Assembly: GCA_000165345.1 (NCBI GenBank)
Contig: CM000435.1
Coordinates: 736,001 to 800,000, forward strand
Direction of reading: 5' to 3'
DNA length: 64,000 nucleotides
Below are positions 59,001-62,000 of this stretch, one piece after another; position 1 is the stretch's first letter; every line of letters starts with the position of its first letter. The position numbers were made by a program.

Positions 59001-62000
59001 AAATGAATAACTCAGTATTTGGCAAGAAAGTAAAGTAAGGCTGACTCTATTATTTGATTCTAATGCGTTAACTAAATTATGCGCTTCATCAATAAAGCAA
59101 AGGGTTTTTTTCTTGTCAAGAAAGATTCCAAATGATTCTCGAGTAGTTTTGTTGAAAATAATACTGTAAGGTGCAAGAATTATGTCTGAATACTTACTTG
59201 CTTCTTTAGCTGCGTAATACGGACATGCCTATAAACAATATTTAGTATGAAAATAATTTAAATAAACTTACAATTAAATTTTTACCTTCTTTACGTAATT
59301 CTTCAATGTTCATTGGCTCAATTAAACACTTTTTCGCAAGTTCCATGTAGTTTTCTTTATAGAGGCATTTATTTTCTTTTTTTTCTTCGCTGGAATACAT
59401 TTTACAAACTTCATTAATAAGATGGTTTGGATAGTTTTTTACTTCATTATTTAAACAAAGATGTGACCTGCTTGCAAGCGATACAATTGAATAAATGTTA
59501 GAAATGTGAGTGTTATCTTTATTTGCCATTTTTATTTTGTTAAACTCCTCAACGAATTGCATTAATTGCGTATGAGTTCTACTAGAGATGATTATCTGAT
59601 AGTAACTAGAAAAAAAATCTAAGTTTTCGCTAGATATTAATTCTTTTACATTTTTTTTTGTCGAAGTTAAAATATCTTTGTTGATAGATTTTAAAAAATT
59701 AATTTTTTCATTAATGTATTGCTCGCATGAATTTTCTCTACTTTTCCTGATTGCATTAGCGACCCATAAAGGCATTGGCTTGCTTTCTCGGGCAAAAGAT
59801 ACTGGGCCATAAATTTGTTGGCTTATCCAACTCAGTGATGAGCATAAAATACTTAAAGTTTTACCTGTGCCCGTTGGAGATTCAAAAATTCCAATTCCAC
59901 CATCTATTTCATATAGCTTCCAAGCAGCTGAACAAAATTCGGATTGTATTTCATATGGTTCATTCGGGAATCCAAATCTTTTTGAATAACACATTGTAAA
60001 TACTTCTGTACCACTTTATCTTAATGAGTGTGGTCAACTAGTATTTAAGTAGGCCATTTCCAGTACTTTAGTAACAAATTTCTGTATTATGAGTTATTCT
60101 CCTAAGTGAAAATAAATTAAAATGATTTAAAAATATATAAAACACCCATAATATTTGTAGTAATAAATTATTTATGTTAAAAAATATACTGTTAGTAAAA
60201 CTTATTTTAAATTTACCCGTTTTTCTCATGCAATGCCTGAGTAAACTTTTTAATAAGCTAAGCAGCGCTTAAATATGAAATATTAGAATTACCTAATTAT
60301 TTATCAATATTTTAATTAAAGATATTCACCACTTTTTGGTTTGGTCTTATATAATTACTTTTATTTCAAATTGGTTGAAAAAATTTGTCAAGCCAAAAAA
60401 AAATTGTTAATGAACCGTAAATCATCTGAAAGAAATCATTTTAAATTATTTGCATTTATAAGAGCTTAATATATTAATCAATTCATCATTAAGTTTTGTT
60501 TCTTAGTAACATGCTTTAATTTATATTTTTCAGAATATTAAAGGATAAAAAATGGTTTTAATTAAAATTAAATAGACCTAGCTGTTGTATAAATCATTTG
60601 GATTGAACAACATTAAAATGGTTTTTGTTAATTCCTAATCAAAAGAATAACTTTTATTAGTAATTTTCATTGAATAGATTGATACTATATTTTTTAAATT
60701 ATAGTGTATCTGAAAATAATATTGCATTAATTTCAAATTCTCTGAGTTTGCGATGAGAAACAATAGTAGTACCCGAATAAGTTCTCTTTTTTTTCTTAAT
60801 TAAAATATTTCAATTTAAACATTAATTTTTAATAACTTGTTATAAATATTTTTAAAGATTACAACATTTTGTGATTTTCAGAGTTAAAAAACTCATCCCA
60901 GATAAATATGACGAAATAGCTTGGGGACTTGACTTGAAAAAAATTAATATCTTTAAGATGTTCTAAATCTAACTCCCAACAAAATCCCAATTAGAACAAA
61001 TTTGAAATGGAATTTCTAATCAATTAACACCAAGATCAATTAGAATGTGTTACTATAATTGAATATTTTAGGATCAACAGAATCGGACAATAAATTTAAA
61101 AAAAAAAATGAAGTTACTCTATTTTTGTATTACTCAACTAATTTCTAAGATATATGAATTGTTATCTAACGAGTGCTAATAAAGCATTTTGAATACAATT
61201 ATTAAAACACAAATATTTTATGGGCTACAATATGGGTTCTCTATTACTTCACTTCCGTCACTTGGACAAATCATTAAAACCTAGAAAAAATTTTATTGAA
61301 AAAAAAATTAAATTCAAACTTACAGAAGCACCCCTTATTACCAATAGACCCAACCTCCGTTTTTGATCTGGGCACGAAAGAAATTCATCTTTATCTATTC
61401 GAACTAATAACTGATTAAACAAATAATATTAGTAACCTACCAAACATATATTCAACTGTTTCATCCAAAACAAGGTTCGTAACCGCATCAAATCCACGTA
61501 ATATTCCAATAACTTCTCTTCCGCCACATAATTTTACTTTTATTTCTTTGTTATTAAACTTGTTCAACCCTAATATTGATTTTGATGACATTTCTATATT
61601 AAATGACAAATAATATTTAGCGAGCGGTACCAATTTTTATAATTTAATATGAAATGAATATTAAGTTTCCAGGTTTTGAAGTTTGTATCTGAATTGCTTG
61701 GCAAGAAAAATGGATTATTTAAATCTAAAACCTTATGAATTGTTTAGAGAAATAACTAAAGATCTGCTAAGAGGCGAAAACGTTAAATTTTACCTAGAGT
61801 CGAAAATAAGTCAAGAAATATTGTGTGATAAAAACCAATTTATGGAATTTGTAAACCAATATTATATAAACAAAAAAAGGGCTCAAAGAATTAATAAGAG
61901 ATGTGACTCTTTTAAAATTCCATTACTTATAGATTTGAATGGAGAAGTTGTAAAAATAGGATGGTCATTAGATTGGGATAAGAATTTAATTAACTTTAAC

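Follow-up and report, generated by a model that had tools for sequence, protein, structure and literature searches.

The window analysed here, a stretch of 64,000 nucleotides of Cryptosporidium parvum DNA, contains on its minus strand an interrupted Sm-fold gene at 61591..61218, whose presence is real and far beyond chance. Judged from the 64-kb window and the orthologous loci, the locus would be the single-copy LSm7 gene of C. parvum chromosome 7. Its features, together with the adjoining spacer, are the following:

61441..61591, minus strand, LSm7 exon 1, 151 nt, with the ATG at 61591..61589; encodes MSSKSIL...TVEYMF with the Sm1 motif
61395..61440, minus strand, LSm7 intron 1 as conserved and annotated, 46 nt, phase 1, donor GTAGGT; GTAGGTTACTAATATTATTTGTTTAATCAGTTATTAGTTCGAATAG
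61404..61440, minus strand, intron 1 as given in the preliminary description, 37 nt, acceptor TTATTAG; in frame, adds Val-Arg-Ile
61324..61394, minus strand, LSm7 exon 2, 71 nt; encodes (D)KDEFLSCPDQKRRLGLLVIRGAS, the variable loop and the Sm2 motif
61281..61323, minus strand, LSm7 intron 2, 43 nt, phase 0, donor GTAAGT, TAG end; GTAAGTTTGAATTTAATTTTTTTTTCAATAAAATTTTTTCTAG
61218..61280, minus strand, LSm7 exon 3, 63 nt, the last three of which (61220..61218) are the TAA stop; encodes VLMICPSDGSEVIENPYCSP
61592..61709, divergent intergenic spacer, 118 nt, from the LSm7 ATG at 61591 (minus strand) to the PP2C phosphatase ATG at 61710 (plus strand)

We favour a model with exons of 151, 71 and 63 nt and introns of 46 and 43 nt, coding for a 94-aa Sm-fold product that by orthology would be a ring subunit, and assign this reading a probability of roughly 0.88. 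The spacer is delimited by the gene coordinates listed for annotated C. parvum locus L014 (offset +39834), and it presumably serves as a bidirectional promoter region common to LSm7 and PP2C. Rfam and tRNA scans of the whole 64-kb window gave no matches.

Upon translation, the frame opened by the minus-strand ATG at 61591 meets GTAGGT and, if unspliced, stops after GRLLILFV. As the preliminary description had noted, the mechanical ORF list holds a single 72-aa ORF here, which starts from an upstream TTG (61415..61633, minus strand). Exon 1 by itself matches positions 3-45 of the Pfam LSM profile (PF01423) and ends with G, the first base of a split Asp codon; the N-terminus that it encodes is kept in all orthologues compared. 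Exon 1 contributes Sm1, and Sm2 is spread over exons 2 and 3. Both introns begin with GT and end with AG, with GTAGGT and GTAAGT as donors and TAG acceptors, and their removal restores the frame and Sm2, as for canonical U2-type introns, whereas retention of either one leads to early stop codons. Because the spliced product fills the LSM domain and the unspliced one covers only positions 3-45, an interrupted Sm-fold gene is truly present. When the two introns of the preliminary description (61440..61404 and 61323..61281) were removed computationally, an in-frame CDS of 294 nt was obtained, with the 97-aa product that it had reported. Pfam scores were 73.3 bits for the 94-aa form and 69.5 bits for the 97-aa form against a cut-off of 23.4, both over positions 3-66 of 66. 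That the unspliced 72-aa product might align better to Sm proteins had been named beforehand as an outcome speaking against splicing; it gave the weaker LSM match, with 48.7 bits (positions 3-45) against 69.5 bits (positions 3-66) for the spliced protein.

In a PDB search with the 94-aa form, the top six distinct sequences were all LSm7 proteins from human, S. cerevisiae and S. pombe (67-96 bits, 1e-26 to 1e-17), with the human protein at 1e-26 and 96.2 bits, aligned without gaps over 90 residues, and the two yeast proteins at 2e-18 to 1e-17. SmG followed with 1e-11 and 48 bits, then LSm3 with 34 bits and LSm5 and LSm8 with about 30 bits; LSm3, LSm5, LSm8 and LSm1 were found at 1e-7 or worse. 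On these scores the window gene is the LSm7 orthologue; with regard to the earlier suggestion of aligning the spliced protein against LSm1-8 as a check of the paralogue, the PDB search places LSm7 ahead of SmG, LSm3, LSm5, LSm8 and LSm1. The Sm1 and Sm2 motifs are common to the window protein and human LSm7 (PDB 3jcr chain 7 and 20 other entries), and the LSm7-type C-terminal extension past Sm2 (ICP.DG.E.I.NPF/Y) is present and corresponds residue for residue to the human and S. pombe tails. Exon 3 encodes this tail, whose aligned counterparts are ICPQDGMEAIPNPF in human and IAPMDGSEEIPNPF in S. pombe; the motif ICPxDGxExIxNP(F/Y) of human and yeast LSm7 recurs in C. parvum as ICPSDGSEVIENPY. 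One letter of the tail had to be amended, as it had been quoted as RGASVVLMICP with one V too many and the sequence gives RGASVLMICP. Differences from the LSm7 proteins of human, S. pombe and S. cerevisiae lie in a shorter N-terminus (94 aa in C. parvum versus 103-119 aa) and in the diverged sequence of the loop between Sm1 and Sm2. The LSm2-8 ring is nuclear and binds U6 snRNA at its 3' end; decapping and decay of mRNA involve the LSm1-7 ring, which works in the cytoplasm together with Pat1. By orthology, C. parvum LSm7 would be expected as a subunit of the heptameric LSm2-8 ring and also of the LSm1-7 ring.

The gene is not new to the databases. Window positions 39835..63827 are identical to C. 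parvum CP141124.1 and CP029786.1 (23,993 of 23,993 bases), and an exact look-up among about 15 billion collected proteins found the 94-aa product already deposited in GenBank and UniProt, for C. parvum as CPHLJ_7g3520 (in one assembly) and UniProt A0A7S7LEJ5 and for C. hominis as OLQ18015.1, 'putative U6 snRNA-associated Sm-like protein LSm7'. Once the 46-nt intron is removed, the window product agrees with these C. parvum and C. hominis records in 94 of 94 aa. A protein search returned Cryptosporidium matches only, led by 'Sm-like protein Lsm7 [Cryptosporidium tyzzeri]' (94 aa, 96% identical). The annotated Cryptosporidium genes (CPHLJ_7g3520/A0A7S7LEJ5, OLQ18015.1 and C. tyzzeri TRY50424.1) also have the same neighbours as the window gene, a divergent PP2C gene upstream and a Chl1-type helicase gene downstream, and the same span of 374 nt. 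A literature search for cgd7_3520 found nothing specific. The LSm7 gene, its name and both introns are already known from GenBank for at least seven Cryptosporidium species. Relative to these records there is no difference in sequence, and only the intron 1 acceptor of the preliminary description deviates, by 9 nt or 3 aa. Its identification as LSm7 with two short GT..AG introns agrees both with the PDB search and with the name that GenBank gives to the identical protein. What has been achieved is the rediscovery of a known and annotated gene with the correction of one boundary, which has little import beyond annotation hygiene. Nevertheless, it illustrates that small split genes can be recovered in the compact Cryptosporidium genome by reading the sequence alone.

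Orthologous DNA was compared from C. hominis, C. tyzzeri, C. meleagridis, C. ubiquitum, C. felis, C. xiaoi and three Cryptosporidium read sets, with the following lengths for intron 1, exon 2 and intron 2:

C. parvum (window): 46, 71 and 43 nt
C. hominis: 46, 71 and 45 nt
C. tyzzeri: 46, 71 and 43 nt
C. meleagridis: 46, 71 and 42 nt
C. ubiquitum: 46, 71 and 44 nt
C. felis: 47, 71 and 46 nt
C. xiaoi: 76, 65 and 45 nt
SRR18693150: 46, 71 and 42 nt
SRR31861040: 47, 71 and 53 nt
SRR31860995 (best model): 77, 71 and 48 nt

Positions and phases of both introns are conserved in the ten lineages, and exon 2 was scored as 71 nt long in eight of them. Between C. parvum and C. ubiquitum the introns are 76-77% identical and the exons 85-89%, the introns diverging faster than exon 1. 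Intron 2 (GTAAGT…TTTTTTCTAG, 14% G+C in C. parvum) ranges from 42 to 53 nt across the lineages in increments not divisible by three, the 45 nt in C. hominis resulting from a longer T run, and the flanking protein, GA(S/T)V before and LMICP after the junction, is invariant across species. For the intron 1 donor at 61440 and for the 43-nt intron 2 at 61323..61281, the positions of the preliminary description were confirmed exactly.

These data also bear on an unspliced reading of the locus, with a product of 58 aa (from the ATG) or 72-73 aa (from the TTG). Such entries do exist, namely XP_628515.1 from the 2004 Iowa II annotation (73 aa, 'hypothetical protein, partial') and CUV07338.1 from one C. 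hominis annotation (58 aa). However, the unspliced product has no Sm2 and reaches only positions 3-45 of the 66 of the LSM profile, exons 2 and 3 are conserved as protein in 10 of 10 lineages around intervening segments that vary and whose lengths are not multiples of three, and all annotations later than these two records splice LSm7. We regard an unspliced locus as having next to no probability, and the comparative data effectively refute it; the 2004 reference and one C. hominis annotation missed the splicing of LSm7 and recorded fragments of 73 and 58 aa.

For the spliced gene the point that requires discussion is the end of intron 1, where two in-frame acceptors lie in tandem 9 nt apart, GTAGGTTACTAATATTATTTGTTTAATCAGTTATTAG (37-nt intron) followed by TTCGAATAG (46-nt intron), the distal one ending the intron at 61395 in the context GAATAG. 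A CAG at intron position 30 (first exon base 61410) was rejected as acceptor, as its use shifts the frame into stop codons. In all spliced GenBank models retrieved, from seven Cryptosporidium species, intron 1 ends at 61395 or the equivalent position, so that EYMF is followed by DKDEF or its equivalent and never by VRIDKDEF; Asp stands straight after the intron in the spliced models of C. tyzzeri, C. meleagridis, C. ubiquitum, C. felis and C. xiaoi. For C. parvum itself, the annotated 374 nt for 94 aa leave 89 nt of intron, and therefore 46 + 43 nt (61440..61395 and 61323..61281) is the sole solution giving the recorded protein. The 94-aa, 97-aa, TTG-extended 108-aa and 111-aa and intron 2-retaining forms were looked up in the collection of about 15 billion proteins. 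There was no exact match for the 97-aa form and no transcript-derived record of either intron 1 junction; the exact look-up of spliced ORFs, in a collection that includes Logan assemblies of public runs, returned only the 94-aa form and only from annotated genomes. Since A0A7S7LEJ5 falls into the same accession series as entries tied to IOWA-ATCC records (QOY accessions), we infer that the 94-aa model belongs to the IOWA-ATCC annotation. The authors of this annotation describe its introns as 100% supported by RNA-seq, a general statement and not one made per gene (PMC8744675). From this annotation, said to be supported by RNA-seq, together with the comparative evidence, the 46- and 43-nt junctions would be those used in C. 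parvum mRNA.

The 37-nt intron 1 of the preliminary description (61440..61404) might instead be real or the major form, in which case C. parvum LSm7 has 97 aa, the three extra residues Val-Arg-Ile lying in the loop that connects Sm1 to Sm2. This model keeps the frame and yields a complete LSM domain with 69.5 bits, its acceptor TTATTAG is closer than CGAATAG to the T-rich intron ends seen elsewhere in the window and has the more pyrimidine-rich context of the two in C. parvum, and the loop tolerates changes in length, with yeast LSm7 aligning gaplessly to the 97-aa form. In addition, the proximal acceptor lies about 11 nt past a conserved branch-like motif (TTAAT/CTAAT). However, the proximal form scores lower against the Pfam LSM profile (69.5 versus 73.3 bits) and against human LSm7, with 89.3 bits and Val-Arg-Ile opposite a gap compared to 96.2 bits for the gapless 94-aa form; its acceptor occurs in none of the retrieved spliced models, its product is missing from the protein collection, and an intron of 37 nt is shorter than the six others in the window (43-48 nt). 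The comparison of lineages also speaks for the distal site. Each of the ten lineages has the distal AG together with an Asp codon split into G and AY, but an AG at intron position 37 occurs only in C. parvum, C. hominis, C. tyzzeri and C. meleagridis. Outside this group it is absent from five of six lineages, C. ubiquitum (…CAGTTGTTCATTTGAATAG), SRR18693150 (…CACTTTTTCATTTAAATAG), SRR31861040, C. felis and C. xiaoi, and in the sixth, SRR31860995, where intron 1 is much longer, the AG that ends at position 38 is unrelated. We consider the 37-nt intron very unlikely as the real or major form. The earlier placement at 61404, with its 97-aa product, most likely misses the true boundary by 9 nt, or 3 aa, when compared with the 46 nt and 94 aa of the databases and the conservation across species, and the 61404 acceptor is probably unused or minor. 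Where two AGs lie close together in frame, picking the first plausible one can err, and conservation across species settles the choice. A similar case is the intron at 45652..45697 in the same window, whose annotated acceptor lies 5 nt past an internal CAG that is skipped, and an intron thus need not end at its first AG.

The proximal acceptor could still be used to some extent in C. parvum, as the two sites may both be active and give LSm7 isoforms of 94 and 97 aa in the clade of C. parvum, C. hominis, C. tyzzeri and C. meleagridis. As both AGs are in frame, neither product would be lost to nonsense-mediated decay, and the proximal AG and the next 9 nt are identical in all four species. The whole of intron 1 is, however, 98-100% identical among these species, and the identity of the AG is therefore no evidence of selection. 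Further points against joint use are the missing record of a 97-aa protein and the RNA-seq re-annotation, which reports only three putatively alternatively spliced genes, given by CPATCC identifier (PMC8744675). We consider joint use unlikely. If it did occur, the proximal AG would have arisen recently, and LSm7, a subunit of both the core spliceosome and the decay machinery, would be made in two isoforms in a genome with almost no alternative splicing reported. In the intron 1 comparison no clear branch-point motif emerged: a TTAAT/CTAAT/TTGAT element about 20 nt from the distal AG is conserved, whereas TACTAAT close to the donor is not.

With intron 1 at 46 nt as in the favoured model, at least seven introns were found in the window, all of 43-48 nt. 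They were identified by means of annotated spans and product lengths, a solver, our own scans and exact look-ups of spliced products; in window positions 1..40 kb introns were sought with ORF-bridging scans, which gave many false positives. Besides the two in LSm7, these introns are:

13379..13424, RPB12/RPABC4 intron, 46 nt, donor GTAAGT
45652..45697, intron of the hypothetical gene cgd7_3440/CPATCC_003547 (45561..46398), 46 nt, donor GTAAGT
45814..45861, second intron of cgd7_3440/CPATCC_003547, 48 nt, donor GTATGT
54836..54879, intron of a cytidylyltransferase/PPAT-like gene, 44 nt, donor GTAAGT
59229..59271, intron of a Chl1-type helicase gene, 43 nt, donor GTAAGT

Pfam was used to check the identities given for RPB12 and the cytidylyltransferase. 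Two longer candidates were discarded: a 90-nt intron at 36574..36663 upstream of a patatin gene, for which the upstream frame has no ATG, and a 115-nt intron at 34920..35034, for which the databases have the unspliced protein of 316 aa but no spliced one of 328 aa.

The preliminary description had counted five introns, all of 37-46 nt, and suggested a characteristic minimal-intron class for this genome. Its count and range have to be replaced by at least seven introns of 43-48 nt, the two additional ones lying in the gene at 45561..46398. The class itself is broadly right as a description, with seven introns of 43-48 nt of which five have GTAAGT donors, but had already been published. Lengths of 43-48 nt are not near the spliceosomal minimum, as much shorter introns are known from ciliates and chlorarachniophyte nucleomorphs.

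Earlier surveys of Cryptosporidium reported 213 introns with median and mean lengths of 61 and 82 nt, 84% of introns starting with GTAAGT and no clear branch-point consensus in C. parvum (Irimia & Roy 2008; PMC2483917), and 688 introns averaging 99 bp, at 22% G+C (Isaza et al. 2015; PMC4637869). Intron shortening is named as a general feature of the genus in the re-annotation paper (PMC8744675). As in these C. parvum introns (PMC2483917, PMC4637869), those of the window are AT-rich and dominated by GTAAGT with no obvious branch consensus, but with 43-48 nt they occupy a narrow length range that lies under both the published median (61 nt) and the published means (82-99 nt). The window introns sample the short end of the known C. 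parvum distribution and are not a new class. Their clustering at 43-48 nt fits the published statistics and may serve as a prior for gene finding in Cryptosporidium. The G+C content is 14-24% in six of the seven window introns and 42% in the seventh, 45814..45861.

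Intron 1 of LSm7 measures 76-77 nt in C. xiaoi and in the Cryptosporidium read set SRR31860995, for which the intron model is uncertain, with more than one possible in-frame acceptor, as against 46-47 nt otherwise. In the latter read set the possible acceptors are several. Both long introns, from two of the more distant Cryptosporidium lineages, keep the position and phase of the shorter form. Therefore, a length of about 46 nt is typical for Cryptosporidium, not fixed across the genus.

Two further short introns, both missing from the list in the preliminary description, were found in a hypothetical gene.

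45561..46398, plus strand: hypothetical gene cgd7_3440 / CPATCC_003547, 247 aa
45652..45697, plus strand: its 46-nt intron, donor GTAAGT
45814..45861, plus strand: its 48-nt intron, donor GTATGT, G+C 42%

The G+C content of the 48-nt intron is unusually high. Annotation of this gene varies, with a product of 247 aa versus 232 aa in two C. parvum assemblies and an unspliced 132-aa version in Iowa II; a Pfam search of the product returned no domain.

The surroundings of LSm7 comprise one long and one short interval.

59995..61217: 1,223 nt without annotated gene, from the LSm7 stop codon to the Chl1 helicase start
61592..61709: spacer between the LSm7 ATG (minus strand) and the PP2C phosphatase ATG (61710, plus strand)

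The former, roughly double the published intergenic mean of 552-589 bp, holds no ORF above 48 aa and gave no match in Rfam and tRNA scans. Its conservation over the approximately 600 nt available amounts to 93% in C. tyzzeri and 85% in C. meleagridis, and blastn against five more distant lineages yielded no match. Long UTRs or a non-coding RNA could be located here. On the other side of LSm7, the divergent start codons are only 118 nt apart, which implies a very compact putative bidirectional promoter of LSm7 and the PP2C phosphatase gene.

A convergent gene pair was also observed.

49835..53827, plus strand: TRAPPC9/Trs120-like ORF, 1330 aa
53816..55734, minus strand: cytidylyltransferase / PPAT-like gene

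Models of the PPAT-like gene spread widely across assemblies and species (624, 625, 600, 589, 559 and 518 aa, besides fragments of 212 and 217 aa). Its product has a weak, sub-threshold match to Pfam CTP_transf_like (17.5 bits; cut-off 21), confined to the HxGH end of that domain. The two genes of the pair share 12 nt at their 3'-ends (53816..53827) according to the annotated C. parvum record, an example of the tight packing of this genome.
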